Source: Methylococcales bacterium
GTDB taxonomy: Bacteria; Pseudomonadota; Gammaproteobacteria; Methylococcales; Methylomonadaceae
Direction of reading: 5' to 3'
Length of the DNA stretch: 64,000 bases
Assembly (NCBI GenBank): GCA_040079795.1
Contig: JBEBJQ010000005.1
Span: forward strand, 28,977-92,976
Every line of letters begins with the position of its first letter. Position 1 is the first letter of the stretch. Under the pieces are notes generated by a model that worked only from the letters and a program-made list of their open reading frames with translations, made no database searches and was not told the DNA's origin. The translations under genes and the position numbers were made by a program. Shown here one piece after another: positions 50,401-51,665 of the stretch.

Positions 50401-51665
50401 GAGAAATTGCCCGTGTAGCTTACATCGGGTAACACAACATGGTCATCAACACCGTCAAATTGAAGGGCGTTGCCATAAAGGCCAGTTACTGTAGCCGAGC
50501 CGTTGACTATTGAGCCATTGCTGCTACCAACGCTGTCGATAGCGTTGCCTTCCAGTCCCCAATAGTGCGTTATACCGATTACGCCGTCGTTGACTAAGTA
50601 TTGGAAACTGTCGTTGCCGGACCAGTCGAGGCTTGGTGTGTAGCTGAACGAGCCGTCGGTGTTTAGGGTGAATGACGCAGCATGGGATGGGCCGGAGACT
50701 AATGTCGCCGTAAGCGCATTACCATTTGCATCAGTGTCATTAGTCAGTACGCTTCCGGTAATGACCGTGTCTTCGCCGCCAGATACACTGTCACTATTTG
50801 CCGTAGGTGCCAGGTTGGTTGTCGTCAGAACTTCCTGCCAGGTAGCTTGCGCAACCAGATTGGGTGCGATTGTAGCGTCGATATTGCCGGTGCTGAATTC
50901 AAGACGCCAGTCGCCCCCTTCGGCGGCATTACCGGTAAGATTGTCAGATGCCGCAATATCCGCAGCCGTTAACTGGCCCAATGTTCGTACAAACAATTTC
51001 CCGGCTTCGCCTTCAGCAACATTACAACCATACAGCAATATGTCACCATCGGCAGATAAAGCATTTCCCCACGCGCTGACTTGTTTAAGATGGGAGCTGA
51101 GCGTAGTGAGATTAAGCTGGGTATTGCCAATCTCTATAGCGCCTTCGCTGCCATGCGAAAGTATATGAATGGTCTTCAAATTCTGCTGGTTTGCAAGCAC
51201 CTGATCTATTTGTGCAACGCCATCCTTATTTGAGTCAAGTAGGATGACCTGTGCATCAGAATTGATTCCCCCCAATAATTGTTGATAATCTTTTACATTG
51301 GTGTCTACAAAGATGATTTCTTTGCTGGTTGCAAGGTTTGAATTGGCGAGCGCTGAAAAATTGGGCGCTTCAGCGTTAACTGGAGTGGCTTTATCCGTAT
51401 TTAGTTTCTCAACATCGGTTACTTGATTTTGCTGCCCAGTTGTTTTTTGCTGAAAACTTTGGTCAAACGGCTCTAAAACCGCGAACCCAGGTTGATTTTC
51501 TTTAGGAGATACAGCGAATGTGTCGTTTGCTCCAATGTCCTGATACACTGCAAATTCAGGCTCTTTATGGTCTAGCAATAGCCCTTCAATGCCTGCGGAG
51601 AAGAGCTGCCGTGCTTCTAATTCTTCCAGAACCGGTTTGGAGTTAAATCGACGGTCTTTACGCAT
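41499..51665 (-). CDS. giant (3388 aa) surface-adhesin-like protein
   Basis: One uninterrupted 10,167-nt ORF. Modules recognised: LEELEARQLFSA near the N-terminus followed by a DUF4347-like module (IIFVD...HILSHGSEGAIEIG...DILLYGCNVAEGEAG); repeated NDAP-bounded ~100-aa Ig/cadherin-like modules; two LamG-like modules ending in LYNRAL/IYNRVLS; a PA14-like module (GTYTFTVAADDAATLFVDG); a cadherin-type module; and three YQWxRNG Ig-like repeats. The C-terminus has hydrophobic segments (VMIFSTVTLTAGFVSWIL, ALLASLLPSIPLL) and a charged tail. No Sec signal peptide or GGxGxD RTX repeats were seen. Confidence 0.9.
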   Translation of the reverse strand: MRKDRRFNSKPVLEELEARQLFSAGIEGLLLDHKEPEFAVYQDIGANDTFAVSPKENQPGFAVLEPFDQSFQQKTTGQQNQVTDVEKLNTDKATPVNAEAPNFSALANSNLATSKEIIFVDTNVKDYQQLLGGINSDAQVILLDSNKDGVAQIDQVLANQQNLKTIHILSHGSEGAIEIGNTQLNLTTLSSHLKQVSAWGNALSADGDILLYGCNVAEGEAGKLFVRTLGQLTAADIAASDNLTGNAAEGGDWRLEFSTGNIDATIAPNLVAQATWQEVLTTTNLAPTANSDSVSGGEDTVITGSVLTNDTDANGNALTATLVSGPSHAASFTLNTDGSFSYTPSLDWSGNDSFQYLVNDGVIGITHYWGLEGNAIDSVGSSNGSIVNGSATVTGLYGNALQFDGVDDHVVLPDVSYTGNFSLALYFKVDDNSGTGLQYLYSHGAIPNSPNTIQVALTESSYIGSTPVNNLVTTVWDSNDTSGQIYTDVSTLIGDGQWHLYTMTVTAGIGTQVYVDGGLLGSLATGSDSIDPVGNVYLGARSDLDPTRFLNANGEIDGVVLYNRALDVSEVASLASNSPQAPVNITITAVNDTPIVSTTGSAMGYTHNDPATAVDNALTLSDVDSTHMASATVSISSGYVNGQDTLAFTNQNGITGSWNASTGVLTLSGSATVANYQSALRSIAYFNSSSNPSLATRTLSFFVNDGLANSSIATRNISLSAMASNSTPSNTTPGAQTTSYNSSLIFSSANGNQLSVNDANAGSSPLEVTLSVSNGTLALASVSGLSFTSGSGAADSTMTFSGTVSDLNNALNGLDFTPTNNFNGIATLTLSTLDSTLYSLNIDTSLKGRYAFENTSALGTDSSPAAAYPGTVDGATALNDATRGNVLSLGGNAYIQTPGFFGSPTNVTLSAWVNLNTASAGGADVISLGDNVLIRLDGSGGLIGGFYNGSTWIGTTYNTLLAGTGWHHVAFSFDDTGDKTALYLDGTLVGSITTTDSIHYTLGIDSFIGRHGNGGTTFDFNGKIDDARIYNRVLSAGEVAALANDSSLTPTNTTPITVLAVNILPVNTVPATLTFNEDSTTAIAGLSITDPDAGSSTLRTELTVSSGTLSASSGGAVNVTGSGTSTLILTGTLTDLNAYLASAAKPTYTGATNSNGAVTLTMVTSDGLNTGIGGSLAAGTFDYRFQDGAPTGSNPNLISVTGGMTGVATNLSAPSLANTLTGSTTTFGVIYSGILNVTTAGTYTFTVAADDAATLFVDGTQVLLAWFGSSSNTATLTAGQHSIELHYAQDTGGAGLNASYSGPDTFSTTTPLLSAPNVGRLVSQTASTAITVTAVNDAPMLTDGGSAFATVSNWANPFTGVVTLTDPDSPDFNGGSLTATISSGENTDFLLLLGIGGVSLSGSNVLVDGVTVGTWSGGSNGTLLSVNFNANAQVAKVQAVYQSITFGTTSVTPTLGIRTISVVVTDGDGGISNTATGEVDLTGTGVANNAPIFSNLDGTPTYTQGGAAVLLDSDVTITDPELTAADNFNGATLTLARSNGVNAQDVFNASGSLGTLTQGNALVVGASTIGAVTTNSGGTLTFTFNASATNILVNQAMQQIAYSNNSSTPPASVQINWIINDNNSGAQGTGGPASSNGSSIVNITSVNDAPVLSPIAPTLTTITEDNIANPGQTVASFLGNSISDVDSGALQGIAITDVSTGTVGYWEYSIDGGSNWAWIGAVSESSARLLGATDLIRYHPDQAQGETVSFTYHAWDLSVGISGNLGNASANGGTSAFSMATDTASITVTNINDAPLAAPQGYSLTAITEDQTSNAGETVKSFISHGSFISINAYQDLDPADQIGIALISTNDGNGYWEYSLDNGAQWYAVGSVSSNSALLLKETDRVRFVPDSLTATSASLSYRFWDQTAGTEGTKVDTSSNGGTTAFSTGTDNSAISVTTVNDAPVLDMSKSPALNSIAEDNASPSGAAGTLVSTLVDFATPGGQLDNVTDADALSGLGIALTGANNSNGIWFYSTDNGSSWNTVGSVSDTSALLLNADSVTRLYFQANANYSGSISDAITFRAWDQGFGSNGTLADASINGGSTAYSATSDSAPIIISAMNDAPVATADSYTVAEDGTLTIAAPGVLANDMDIEGTALTAALVNFPSHYSVFNFTTGGNIVYTPTANFNGTDTFSYIAGDGLLWSQVVTVTITVTPQNDAPSITFVSGNPTVPENDGPFLLASGALITDIDSADFDTGQLVITISANGLPEDRLTVRNEGHHTNQVDVSGSDILYNGIVVASFNGPVTGYTPLVVTFNSNASLAIVQDIARNVTYENTSNAPSSTARVLEGYLTDGDGGISATLSGSISITAVNDAPILNTSADPVLTAMNEGSGIPVGTVGTRVEDLVDFTLPAGQLDNVVDPDTGAQLGIAIRSVDTSHGSWWYSIDNGSNWNPTGILSSSNALLLAADNNTRIYFQPDANWNGTLANALDFRAWDLSTGSNGSFASTSSNGGSTAFSHHTDSAGLTVIASNDAPLIISNGGGSTASISLAENIGIVTTVTATDIDLPAQKLVYSLYGGDDQGLFSIDPNSGVLSFTSPPDYETPGDFNHDNIYDVTIQVNDGNGGVATQTLAIQINNTAESAALSLSGLSNVSINENTAFTSPTPSLTGSPVGTVVYTLSGADAGLFSVSPATGVVSMAARDFENPEDSDNNNSYQVTLTVTDSDNNSTSLSFSVQVLNIAESATLNLSGLSNVSINENTAFTSPTPSLTGSPVGTVVYTLSGADAGLFSVSPATGVVSMAARDFENPQDANTDNVYQVTLTATDSKNNSASLNFTVKVENLLETPSNHTSLGLPVIMGIVTEDGTLTVDTSDISDDNGLGEFSYQWFRNNAIINGANGKTYTLGDADVGQQISVKASYIDGSGNPESVNSTLTAPVSNINDAPFGTVTITGTASQGQTLIAGNSLTDADGLGAIHYQWQRNGVDIPGANGNSYVLGLSDVNNVIRVVASYTDAHGTPESKSSEDTAIIIGTPTIPVSAPVIIGSMQVNQILNIDTLGITNIENIHVSGYQWFRNGVAVIDATNSSYVLSDQDIGSKISVQIFYTDKAGLTKSVMSSSRLFEVSDTPINTPIKETTTPNSLPVVNTTQPTAIVQATLIQPAVVENNLNNPLLILTQLPQNPAYSEPNQAFTNIKLNGHSEPDGSSSALAFNNSLDKFIANLINTNIVVENTPVFDDQAATTRHSLKDILEDDALALKKPQIISFKETLQNITLSHVMDNQENEFNVDLETLFTASEEQALWQKLAAMRETIEQNHTEQTTENLEVMIFSTVTLTAGFVSWILRGGALLASLLPSIPLLKGFDPLPIVVKSNKASKSLKSGKQAEAYDTQDDKVEQMFANVTDE
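43288..43776 (-). repeat. intragenic tandem duplication, 306-bp period (102 aa), within the giant gene
   Basis: 43288-43470 is identical by eye to 43594-43776 (183 bp). The flanks are still similar. It encodes two near-identical modules (..LSGLSNVSINENTAFTSPTPSLTGSPVGTVVYTLSGADAGLFSVSPATGVVSMAARDFENP..). Confidence 0.9.

Follow-up and report, generated by a model that had tools for sequence, protein, structure and literature searches.

Short motifs near the N-terminus of very large bacterial proteins are catalogued as Pfam PF07595 'Planc_extracel' and NCBIfam NF012209 'LEPR-8K / LEPR-XLL domain'. The PF07595 consensus, RRLxxExLExRxLLA, goes back to Studholme et al. (2004), by whom the motif class was put forward as an export signal (both points as recounted in PMC8567305). 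Motif-bearing proteins of T. immobilis were recovered from an SDS-only cell-envelope fraction (PMC8567305), export of LEPRxLL giants that 'lack known signals' is described for Chlorobium chlorochromatii (bioRxiv 10.64898/2026.03.19.712371), and a LEPR-XLL protein of Vibrio is reported to have a C-terminal RTX domain (PMC10868602). In this literature the motif is either described as Planctomycete-specific or merely catalogued, and neither receptor nor pathway is named. A separate line of work has described a 'Secondary SecA_DEAD / type-I-secretion-related' locus with genes for a GAF-HlyD protein, a Peptidase_M50-HlyD protein, a short SecA_DEAD protein and an HlyD protein; in the passages of that paper that deal with the locus its biological role is called 'completely unknown', and cargo, signal and RRE are not named (Kamneva, Poudel and Ward 2015, PLoS One, PMC4452313).

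All four of these genes are present in the window, by which is meant the whole 64,000-nucleotide stretch of Methylococcales DNA that was analysed, and they lie 0.25–9 kb upstream of a gene for a giant adhesin-like protein, on the same strand (Table 1). The N-terminal tag of this giant is very probably an address label that sends giant proteins to the putative S2P-HlyD export machine; it is a probable export label because it is nearly confined to genomes with the membrane protease–adaptor protein. This link between tag and machine is apparently undescribed in the literature searched. An earlier note on this DNA had called the role of the tag not established, which passes over the export proposal of 2004 but holds for the machinery.

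Table 1. Coordinates of the giant protein gene, its tag and the neighbouring cassette within the window
Feature	Position	Strand	Evidence or remark
Giant cargo gene, 3,388 aa	41499..51665	-	cadherin-like, Big_9, LamG, PA14 modules
Giant residues 1-32, MRKDRRFNSKP-VLEELEARQLFSA-GIEGLLLD	51570..51665	-	
Tag basic N-region, residues 1-11, MRKDRRFNSKP	51633..51665	-	translation
Tag core VLEELEARQLFSA, residues 12-24	51594..51632	-	LEPR-type, Ala in place of Pro
GIEGL extension, residues 25-29	51579..51593	-	alignments
Tag-DUF4347 stretch, residues 33-116 (84 aa), predicted disordered	51318..51569	-	AlphaFold
DUF4347 domain, residues 117-280	50826..51317	-	Pfam PF14252 E 1.3e-58
C-terminal hydrophobic module VMIFSTVTLTAGFVSWILRGGALLASLLPSIPLLKGFDPLPIVV, residues 3310-3353	41607..41738	-	charged tail after
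HlyD-type membrane-fusion protein, 499 aa, third adaptor	51913..53412	-	TIGR01730 119 bits
Shortened SecA-like ATPase, 663 aa	54638..56629	-	SecA_DEAD, PPXD, P-loop_SecA domains
RRE-S2P(M50)-HlyD fusion, 715 aa	56622..58769	-	candidate receptor/processing subunit
RRE/PqqD-like domain of fusion, residues 18-101	58467..58718	-	
HELGH zinc-binding motif of S2P core (H210, E211, H214)	58128..58142	-	
NPLLKYDG motif, third zinc ligand D312	57831..57854	-	
GAF-GAF-HlyD protein, 588 aa	58786..60552	-	syntenic in nearly all loci

The giant opens with a basic stretch followed by VLEELEARQLFSAGIEG, and its ATG at 51665 is the earliest possible start, with a stop codon three codons upstream. The translation of residues 1–60 contains no hydrophobic stretch that could serve as a Sec-type h-region, and the RR of the tag, the candidate for a Tat-type twin-arginine, is not kept in the aligned orthologs. 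A basic stretch plus [ILF][LF]EE[LM]ExRxLFS[GA]G was found in 23/23 syntenic orthologs with a readable N-terminus, and core residues E14, R19, L21 and S23 are invariant in the 19 orthologs aligned. All orthologs and the distant tags have a K/R/H-rich stretch of 8–25 residues ahead of the core; conservation of the GIEGL extension is limited in the alignments to a Methylococcales-type sub-variant, most other lineages having D-L/V-x. When a profile built from the ortholog tags was run over all six frames of the organism's own genome (4.4 Mb), the tag of the giant was the one site returned (53.5 bits, E 2.5e-14), the runner-up reaching only 15 bits. Translation, orthologs and genome-wide uniqueness together bear out the description, already given in the earlier note, of a basic segment with a conserved tag. 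In a search of 1.84 billion representative proteins this profile gave 105 matches at E<=0.001, about 100 of which begin within protein residues 1–12. At least six phyla have the tag, on architectures unrelated to each other, and it is retained where the downstream stretch and domains diverge or differ entirely.

From 80 distinct tags the consensus LE-x-LEPR-x-LLSAD was obtained, with R in 80/80, E-5 in 74/80, E-2 in 71/80, L+2 in 68/80 and S+4 in 65/80, the variable sites being position -1 (P47/A8) and +3 (L42/F20). The string LExRxLxSA given in the earlier note stands, as part of this wider consensus, which is the catalogued LEPR-XLL/Planc_extracel motif. Judged by its sequence, the tag of the giant is a diverged member of that class: LEELEARQLFSA fits the core LExLE-P-R-x-L-L-(S/A) except that Pro is replaced by Ala and Leu by Phe, and both variants are common. 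It gave no match to NF012209 or PF07595 even at E<=10 and lies below their curated cut-offs (17 and 25.5 bits, respectively), a miss to which the filters applied by HMMER to very short models may have contributed; related tags score 15.6–27.8 bits with PF07595, the highest being that of a 10,767-aa Desulfobulbus protein (27.8).

Behind the tag, a linker of about 90 residues and a DUF4347-like module had been noted previously, and a stretch of 84 residues followed by DUF4347 was indeed found. This stretch varies from ~40 to ~250 residues among orthologs, and AlphaFold gives pLDDT <50 for residues 1–4 and 12–111, with the tag and the following stretch not packed on DUF4347, which forms a block of pLDDT 78–96 over residues 111–240 and lower values after 240. 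His171 (SHG) and Cys214 (YGC) are invariant alignment columns of DUF4347, and its Foldseek matches include Tce1 (9qpe_G), caspase-3/7/8, CED-3 and legumain, each with a probability of ~1.0. The fold is predicted to be caspase-like in appearance; DUF4347 may be a self-processing protease and, being adjacent to the tag, could act as an alternative clipper. The tie between the tag and DUF4347 giants that the earlier note had drawn did not hold, as DUF4347 is not seen in the first 540–630 residues of some tag-bearing giants, and a second DUF4347 protein of the same genome (contig C43) has no tag. The C-terminal hydrophobic module is kept in homologs P0003–P0009, one of which has a tag of the second class described below, and is also found in giants of Halioxenophilus, Cellvibrio and a Scalinduaceae MAG. 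RTX-like GGxGxD repeats form the C-terminal end of some LEPR-tagged giants, and this, together with the Vibrio case, makes it possible that some members are exported by a classical type I system; in the cargo and cluster studied here, domain searches found no RTX or ABC transporter families.

The RRE-S2P-HlyD fusion finds its best named HMM in NCBIfam daptide_HExxH, a model that combines RRE and M50 and takes its name from daptide biosynthesis, matched end to end over residues 19–414 at 139 bits, under the equivalog cut-off of 300. The Pfam PqqD match to its N-terminal domain alone is sub-threshold (18.8 vs 23.4 bits); a profile of the domain searched against PDB sequences retrieved PqqD (5sxy, E 9e-4; 3g2b, E 1.2e-3), AlphaFold gives a beta3-alpha3 layout with pLDDT 87–92 over residues 11–100, and Foldseek matched TbiB1 with leader (5v1u/5v1v), TfuB1 (6jx3), PqqD, CteB and LynD. 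By its predicted structure the domain is a leader-binding RRE/PqqD fold. The S2P motifs beside it are invariant: HELGH in 21 sequences, down to 24–25% identity, and N304 plus N306–I316 in the alignment, with HELGH and an NPxxxxDG counterpart retained in the second subfamily described below. The claim that a PqqD-like domain is fused to a protease is thereby upheld. The genome has one copy each of the fusion and of the two other HlyD-type proteins; synteny of the 499-aa HlyD-type protein is kept in almost all loci. The 663-aa SecA-like ATPase scores below the equivalog cut-offs, the canonical SecA being encoded elsewhere, on contig C180. No outer-membrane channel gene was identified at the locus, and there are no RiPP-type modification enzymes among the neighbours (adaptors, SecA-like ATPase, pirin, HtpG and GGDEF-EAL). 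Genes of the GGDEF/EAL type are found repeatedly next to the cargo gene.

Genes for GAF-HlyD, S2P-HlyD, SecA-like ATPase and HlyD are clustered with a tagged giant in about 25 loci from Methylococcales, other Gammaproteobacteria, Halioxenophilus and Berkiella; more loci were found in Nitrospira, delta- and alphaproteobacterial MAGs, Massilia and Cellvibrio, and several of the adjoining giants begin outside the 10-kb flank. In a survey of 400 gammaproteobacterial genomes from 309 genera, a close ortholog of RRE-S2P-HlyD was present in 27, of which 26 have a long ORF with such a tag at its N-terminus, and an S2P-HlyD homolog was present in 28/30 tag-bearing genomes (Fisher p = 1.4e-39). The two exceptions, one complete (G265) and one a fragmented MAG (G091), have weak LEQR-type tags. 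The survey was replicated with 201 alphaproteobacterial genomes, where the tag occurs in both of the genomes with a close ortholog; the remaining matches are false or unconfirmed, two that were checked being internal and one lying in a 75-aa frame. The SecA-like ATPase is not needed for the tag, since four gammaproteobacterial genomes with close-type S2P-HlyD have canonical SecA only.

A distant S2P-HlyD subfamily (subfamily 2; 23–29% identity) adjoins giants with N-termini of the form ALEPRxMFDAA. This class occurs in 14/15 alphaproteobacterial genomes with subfamily 2 and in 0/186 others (p = 1.2e-20), and one genome has three copies of the tag and three of subfamily 2, matched contig by contig. 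Among Gammaproteobacteria, 10/26 genomes with the subfamily gave a match to it at E<0.01 and one more at E=0.01, as against none of 45 controls. An RRE-like domain was matched in 8/25 subfamily-2 regions examined, a Pfam scan of one subfamily-2 locus found no GAF domain in the counterpart adaptor, and in each of nine subfamily-2 genomes checked the only SecA is the canonical one. The occurrence counts support a correspondence between two tag classes and two subfamilies of the fusion protein. Since phylogenetic co-occurrence of the tag and RRE-M50-HlyD is almost one to one, the pairing proposed in the earlier note withstands its own test and is well supported, by the two surveys, frequent adjacency and matched subtypes; the association is present also without a SecA-like paralog. 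Because S2P-HlyD is always accompanied by two other HlyD-type proteins, co-occurrence is blind to which subunit reads the tag.

The best overall explanation, with a probability of about 0.66, combines an N-terminal tag, its recognition by the RRE-S2P-HlyD cassette, export, and possible clipping by S2P. The cargo would carry at its N-terminus a basic stretch and then LExLE(P/A)RxL(L/F)SA, and this disordered end of the nascent giant would be recognised in the cytoplasm by an envelope apparatus encoded just upstream, made up of the fusion and two more HlyD-type adaptors and here aided by the shortened SecA-like ATPase. The recogniser would most probably be the RRE domain of the fusion, whose direct contact with the tag we favour slightly; the giant would be carried over the envelope with its N-terminus first, for which the odds are even. 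Removal of the tag by the intact S2P metalloprotease site beside the RRE is a more tentative step: the site may clip the tag, just as its nearest named relatives, the RiPP-maturation models, are annotated as leader-removing. S2P proteases usually cleave membrane-embedded segments, and the hydrophilic nature of the tag, unlike that of such targets, counts against clipping; the C-terminal hydrophobic module of the cargo could be the real S2P substrate.

It is conceivable, if rather unlikely, that the RRE binds the tag as a targeting signal and that S2P does not clip it, so that the tag stays, or DUF4347 removes it with the following stretch, or S2P cuts the C-terminal module and frees the protein from the inner membrane. 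The hydrophilic tag would suit this, as would the invariant His and Cys of DUF4347, which stand in caspase order in a predicted caspase/legumain-like fold, and the conserved C-terminal module LTAGFVSWILRGGALL...DPLPIL, which has the helix-breaking G and P residues of typical S2P substrates. Many tagged cargoes, however, have no N-terminal DUF4347 or C-terminal module whilst the S2P motifs are invariant in all systems, and the nearest HMM families of the RRE-M50 module (daptide, YydH/LiaK) are named for soluble-peptide RiPP maturation. It is improbable that the RRE is otherwise employed and that the targeting signal is read by the SecA-like preprotein-binding domain or the cytoplasmic GAF region of GAF-HlyD. 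SecA proteins do bind N-terminal signals, the cassette includes a SecA-like gene in this locus as in most of the close ones, and the synteny of GAF-HlyD equals that of S2P-HlyD; tags and S2P-HlyD nevertheless occur together in genomes without a SecA-like paralog, and in subfamily 2 the examined adaptor has no GAF whereas several fusion proteins are RRE-like, the RRE being the sole known peptide-binding fold seen in both subfamilies.

Less probable again is a tag that is a working part of the mature protein, a periplasmic retention or anchor plug as in LapA-type adhesins, with export by a classical type I or other route and the S2P-HlyD cassette needed only for regulated release. The C-terminal RTX-like repeats of some tagged giants (PMC10868602) and the recurring GGDEF/EAL neighbours, which bring to mind how c-di-GMP controls the Lap system, point that way, but this cargo has no RTX repeats and its cluster no ABC transporter gene, the ~25-residue tag is predicted to be disordered and not a folded plug, and it is with S2P-HlyD and the adaptors that the tag pairs nearly one to one. 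That the N-terminal similarity merely reflects shared adhesin-family ancestry or chance, with no function, is scarcely credible: shared N-termini are expected anyway in close orthologs, but the tag outlasts the sequence downstream and spans unrelated architectures and phyla, with co-occurrence p values of 1e-20 to 1e-39. Genome uniqueness, co-occurrence, subtype match and database-wide N-terminal restriction effectively refute it.

Set beside the locus of Kamneva, Poudel and Ward (2015), the present account, with tag-directed export as the preferred reading, adds a cargo class and its tag, and finds the SecA-like gene dispensable for the tag association. As in LEPR-XLL/Planc_extracel proteins, the motif of the giant is short, N-terminal and behind a basic stretch, the core LExLExRxLL(S/A) is common to both, and the carrier is a very large, repeat-rich protein of extracellular type; the tag differs in its Ala for Pro, Phe for Leu and sub-cut-off scores, and here the motif is linked with one particular machine, and ALEPRxMFDAA is distinguished as a second class. 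RiPP leader recognition shares the RRE fold of a three-stranded sheet and three helices, its fusion to an HExxH intramembrane metalloprotease, and a proposed ligand in the form of a short motif within a disordered N-terminal region, the relatives daptide_HExxH (NF041824) and YydH/LiaK (NF058609) being S2P-type proteases named for RiPP maturation. Unlike in RiPP systems, an adhesin-like protein of 3,388 aa takes the place of the 'core' peptide, the cluster is without modification enzymes, the protease shares its polypeptide with a periplasmic HlyD adaptor, and binding and cleavage are putative. With the giant adhesins of type I secretion (LapA/LapB-C-E, LapG/LapD; RTX) the locus shares a repeat adhesin, HlyD-type adaptors, a neighbouring GGDEF-EAL gene and a protease that possibly governs processing; the signal is N-terminal and not C-terminal, the C-terminus is a hydrophobic module with a charged tail, RTX repeats and a cluster ABC transporter gene are absent, and an inner-membrane S2P fused to an adaptor stands in contrast to periplasmic LapG. 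The pairs LPXTG/sortase, PEP-CTERM/exosortase and GlyGly-CTERM/rhombosortase likewise join a short terminal motif to one membrane protease family by phyletic pattern, each genome having between one and a few dozen substrates, and with pairs specific to a subtype; their signals are C-terminal with a transmembrane helix, whereas the tag is N-terminal and hydrophilic, and the enzyme here carries an RRE and an adaptor domain.

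The giant cargo protein (3,388 amino acids) begins with MRKDRRFNSKP-VLEELEARQLFSA-GIEGLLLD, in which a basic stretch is followed by an acidic/Arg/hydrophobic core, and no hydrophobic h-region was found in this translated N-terminus. DUF4347 is followed by cadherin-like, Big_9, LamG and PA14 modules, and the C-terminus consists of a hydrophobic module and a charged tail. Its gene is surrounded by the features listed in the table, and the genome as a whole encodes one S2P-HlyD protein (the PqqD-like/M50/HlyD fusion) and one SecA-like paralogue alongside the canonical SecA. Since the SecA-like and third HlyD genes adjoin in other loci examined, the pirin gene that separates them here appears to be an insertion specific to this lineage. 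Unrelated lineages repeatedly have PAS-GGDEF-EAL genes beside the cassette or the cargo gene (loci L015, L027, L030, L123, L208, L237 and L239), which hints at c-di-GMP control of the production or release of the giant proteins. A second DUF4347/cadherin protein of the same genome (contig C43:10744-11205; locus L061, 1462-3462) starts with MKPINAQSTPSKTLTFIDASVA and is without a LEPR-type tag; the gene directly upstream encodes a GNAT acetyltransferase with a fused C39-like peptidase domain (DUF3335, E 7e-91).

Features of the giant protein gene and its neighbourhood (window coordinates)
Feature	Position	Strand	Remarks
PAS-GGDEF-EAL gene	38426-41461	minus	downstream of giant gene
Giant cargo ORF	41499-51665	minus	3,388 aa
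C-terminal hydrophobic module	41607-41738	minus	residues 3310-3353; LTAGFVSWILRGGALLASLL...PLL.GFDPLPIV, then charged tail
DUF4347	50826-51317	minus	residues 117-280; Pfam E 1.3e-58
Tag	51570-51665	minus	first 32 codons of giant ORF
HlyD-type adaptor	51913-53412	minus	upstream of giant gene
Pirin gene	53714-54571	minus	upstream; between SecA-like gene and third HlyD gene
SecA-like ATPase	54638-56629	minus	upstream; 663 aa
PqqD-like/M50/HlyD fusion	56622-58769	minus	upstream; 715 aa
GAF-GAF-HlyD protein	58786-60552	minus	upstream
HtpG		same strand	upstream; last listed, after GAF-GAF-HlyD

Searching with the fusion protein gave approximately 25 loci, in which the gene order GAF-HlyD, S2P-HlyD, SecA-like, HlyD, DUF4347 giant is kept. 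When the N-termini of these giants were aligned, as the earlier note had suggested, every readable one was found to carry a basic stretch and the core [ILF][LF]EE[LM]ExRxLFS[GA]G. A profile of these syntenic tags (A1), run against all six frames of the genome with filters off, matched the tag site only (53.5 bits, E 2.5e-14; nothing else above 15 bits), and against 1.84 billion representative proteins it gave 105 matches at E<=0.001, about 100 of which begin within the first 12 residues. The wider consensus, LE-x-LEPR-x-LLSAD (32 tags in the broader alignment, A2; 80 distinct tags in the census), is listed by NCBIfam as NF012209 (LEPR-8K/'LEPR-XLL domain') and by Pfam as PF07595 'Planc_extracel'. 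Some relatives of the tag match PF07595 with up to 27.8 bits; the tag itself matches neither model even at E<=10, and its membership of the motif class therefore rests on the profiles built here and on those relatives. In an AlphaFold model of residues 1-290, pLDDT is below 50 at residues 1-4 and 12-111 and DUF4347 is confidently folded, so the model predicts that the tag lies outside that domain as a free and flexible N-terminal segment.

The earlier note had proposed that the tag may be a leader for the RRE-M50-HlyD fusion protein, and the correlation between tag and gene that it called for proved to be strong. An even sample of 400 gammaproteobacterial genomes (309 genera) contains close orthologues of the fusion protein (E<=1e-90) in 27, and profile A2 found long ORFs (up to 14,112 amino acids) with an N-terminal tag in 26 of the 27 (Fisher's exact p = 1.4e-39). 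All 15 genuine matches to A1 lie inside these 27 genomes; the remaining three are internal, in RF2 and RsmH. The false positives of the tag profiles that were discarded all lie at internal positions: in release factor 2 (ILEQLEFRRMFSGE), in RsmH, and in 'LALEALEHRRLLAADVGAGAA', a conserved stretch of internal or antisense-like character. Outside the 27, two genomes whose S2P-HlyD homologue is more distant have credible tags, as do two (G091 and G265) in which no S2P-HlyD was found even by profile search, and which stand as unexplained exceptions. The N-termini concerned are weak and LEQR-type, one opening a 7,373-amino acid frame (G265:C57, ~21737-21793) and the other a 726-amino acid frame in a 780-contig MAG (G091:C349, ~1082-1144). 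Among system-positive Alphaproteobacteria, delta-type lineages, Nitrospira, a Spirochaete MAG and Planctomycetes, 20 of 24 genomes have one or two tags, all checked examples of which open large to giant ORFs (960-12,776 amino acids); many of these giants adjoin the cassette but start beyond the 10-kb flank. Only two of 201 Alphaproteobacteria have a close orthologue, both with a tag, and further matches to the tag profile there are false or unconfirmed (two checked are internal, one is in a 75-amino acid frame). Neither tag class was found in the nine Gammaproteobacteria of the lowest-scoring M50-like group (E 1e-11 to 1e-17), which is probably a different family.

A second class of tag accompanies a distant S2P-HlyD subfamily (subfamily 2; 23-29% identity, 280-390 bits to the profile). 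Beside it lie giants, mostly DUF4347 proteins, that start with a basic stretch and ALEPRxMFD(A/G)A(A/V)xAT (loci L264-L266, L277, L289, L293, L294, L297-L314 and L335-L346). A profile of this class (A5) matches 14 of 15 subfamily-2 Alphaproteobacteria and 0 of 186 others (p = 1.2e-20), always at the N-terminus; in Gammaproteobacteria, class-2 tags were found in 10/26 subfamily-2 genomes at E<0.01 (an eleventh at E=0.01) and in 0/45 controls. In one alphaproteobacterium (G461; contigs C1, C6 and C18) there are three S2P-HlyD genes of subfamily 2 and as many giants with class-2 tags; the two members of each pair share a contig and lie approximately 10-15 kb apart or less. The RRE profile matches 8 of 25 subfamily-2 regions examined, and those proteins keep HExxH and NPxxxxDG. 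Three HlyD-type proteins were again present in the subfamily-2 locus scanned, and no SecA-like gene was found in the subfamily-2 regions examined (10-20 kb).

The SecA-like ATPase was considered as an obligatory partner of the tag and rejected: the short SecA paralogue is absent from four Gammaproteobacteria with a close S2P-HlyD and from all nine subfamily-2 genomes tested. As these genomes bear tags, the tag goes with the S2P-HlyD set rather than with the ATPase. An alternative layout (GAF-HlyD, S2P-HlyD, HlyD, giant, with no SecA-like gene between) was also seen in seven genomes (G097, G382, G397, G122, G185, G303 and G257; loci L087, L088, L093, L096, L097, L102 and L089), two of which keep a short SecA elsewhere and four of which have none; in G185 no SecA match of any kind was found. 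Within the fusion protein, the N-terminal domain matches PqqD (E ~1e-3, profile search of PDB sequences), and AlphaFold models residues 11-100 as three strands and three helices (block pLDDT 87-92). Its best stand-alone structural neighbours are TbiB1, TfuB1, PqqD and the CteB and LynD RRE domains, TbiB1 and TfuB1 being lasso-peptide RREs solved with leader peptides; by sequence match and model, the domain behaves as an RRE. In the S2P part, 21 sequences reaching down to 24-25% identity all share H210, E211, H214, N304 and N306-I316. Among named families, the fusion best matches an RRE-plus-M50 model that takes its name from daptide biosynthesis (139 bits, residues 19-414), at a score below the equivalog cut-off.

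The reading that we prefer, with a probability of roughly 0.65-0.7, is that the tag is the signal that targets the cargo to the S2P-HlyD apparatus encoded alongside it. Other identities for the tag were rejected. A double-glycine (C39) leader is mismatched in its hydrophobic spacing, and its GG is not kept, most lineages having SAD; a Tat signal would fit the RR seen here, but orthologues lack the RR and an h-region is missing. That the tag caps DUF4347 structurally is at odds with a tag predicted to be disordered and undocked, and each of the two also occurs without the other. A contribution from classical type I secretion is possible for some tagged members, as some tagged giants elsewhere have RTX-like repeat C-termini (see also PMC10868602). 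Two LEPR-tagged giants (L321 in G401 and L325 in G414) end in runs of RTX-like GGxGxD repeats, so an N-terminal LEPR tag and a type-I-like C-terminus can coexist in one protein.

For targeting to the S2P-HlyD apparatus, the RRE would be the most likely reader of the tag, and direct contact between the two is somewhat favoured. The fused S2P may also remove the tag, as the earlier note had supposed; this step is more doubtful, because the tag is hydrophilic, a hydrophobic module is conserved at the C-terminus and DUF4347 has a predicted caspase-like fold. S2P enzymes usually cut membrane-embedded segments. The C-terminal module (consensus ...LTAGFVSWILRGGALLxSLLxxxPLxxxFDPLPIL) is conserved in the cargo and in some of its relatives, including tagged giants of Methylomonas, Halioxenophilus, Cellvibrio and a Scalinduaceae MAG and one class-2-tag protein, and could be an S2P substrate or a stop-transfer anchor; its absence from many tagged giants led to its rejection as a universal second signal. 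DUF4347 has an invariant His171 (IHILSHG) and Cys214 (LLYGC) in caspase order, and its AlphaFold model (block pLDDT 78-96, residues 111-240) resembles the Pseudomonas aeruginosa T6SS effector Tce1, caspase-3/7/8, CED-3 and legumain. From this pair and these model matches, the domain may be a caspase-like cysteine protease, possibly self-processing, and, lying right after the disordered stretch, could itself carry out N-terminal processing.

Motif class and gene cassette have each been catalogued before; the pairing of tag and cassette, the second tag class and the matching of subtypes were not found in the literature searched, which names no export machinery for the LEPR motif. One study attributes the motif to Studholme et al. 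as the Planctomycete 'novel export signal' of 2004 (PMC8567305). In Tuwongella immobilis it occurs in 52 genes and in 8 of the 10 longest proteins, and 20 of the 52 motif proteins were seen in the proteome, eight of them only in the SDS-soluble envelope fraction (PMC8567305). A 2026 preprint describes an N-terminal LEPRxLL on exported Chlorobium chlorochromatii proteins of 20,000-36,000 amino acids, said to lack known transport signals (bioRxiv 10.64898/2026.03.19.712371). The available text of Kamneva, Poudel and Ward (2015) describes, from comparative genomics only, a four-gene locus (GAF-HlyD, Peptidase_M50-HlyD, short SecA_DEAD, HlyD), calls its role 'completely unknown' and names no cargo or signal (PMC4452313). 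The Chlorobi species carrying it is not named in the available text or supplements, so that a link to C. chlorochromatii is only a lead. Our profile search found at least 595 loci with the same core in many phyla.

Giants with a LEPR tag rank among the largest proteins of bacteria, and those studied are exported or surface-associated. The tie between tag and S2P-HlyD makes a testable signal-receptor pair out of a 'putative signal' that is 20 years old, supplies a cargo for the orphan 2015 SecA_DEAD/M50/HlyD locus, and offers an annotation rule by which tag plus S2P-HlyD predicts exported giants. We give even odds to a broader proposal, that at least two tag classes (LExLEPRxLLSAD and ALEPRxMFDAA) are universal labels of an ABC-less secretion pathway for giant proteins in many phyla, in which the RRE would read the tag, the fused S2P-adaptor would process the cargo and conduct it outwards, and tag classes would have co-evolved each with a receptor subfamily. 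If true, the Planctomycete signal of 2004 would gain a machine, and there would be an explanation for how LEPRxLL giants, the Chlorochromatium symbiosis proteins among them, exit the cell. RRE domains have so far been known mainly from RiPP and PQQ biosynthesis, and RRE-mediated leader recognition would be widened from small peptides to protein secretion.
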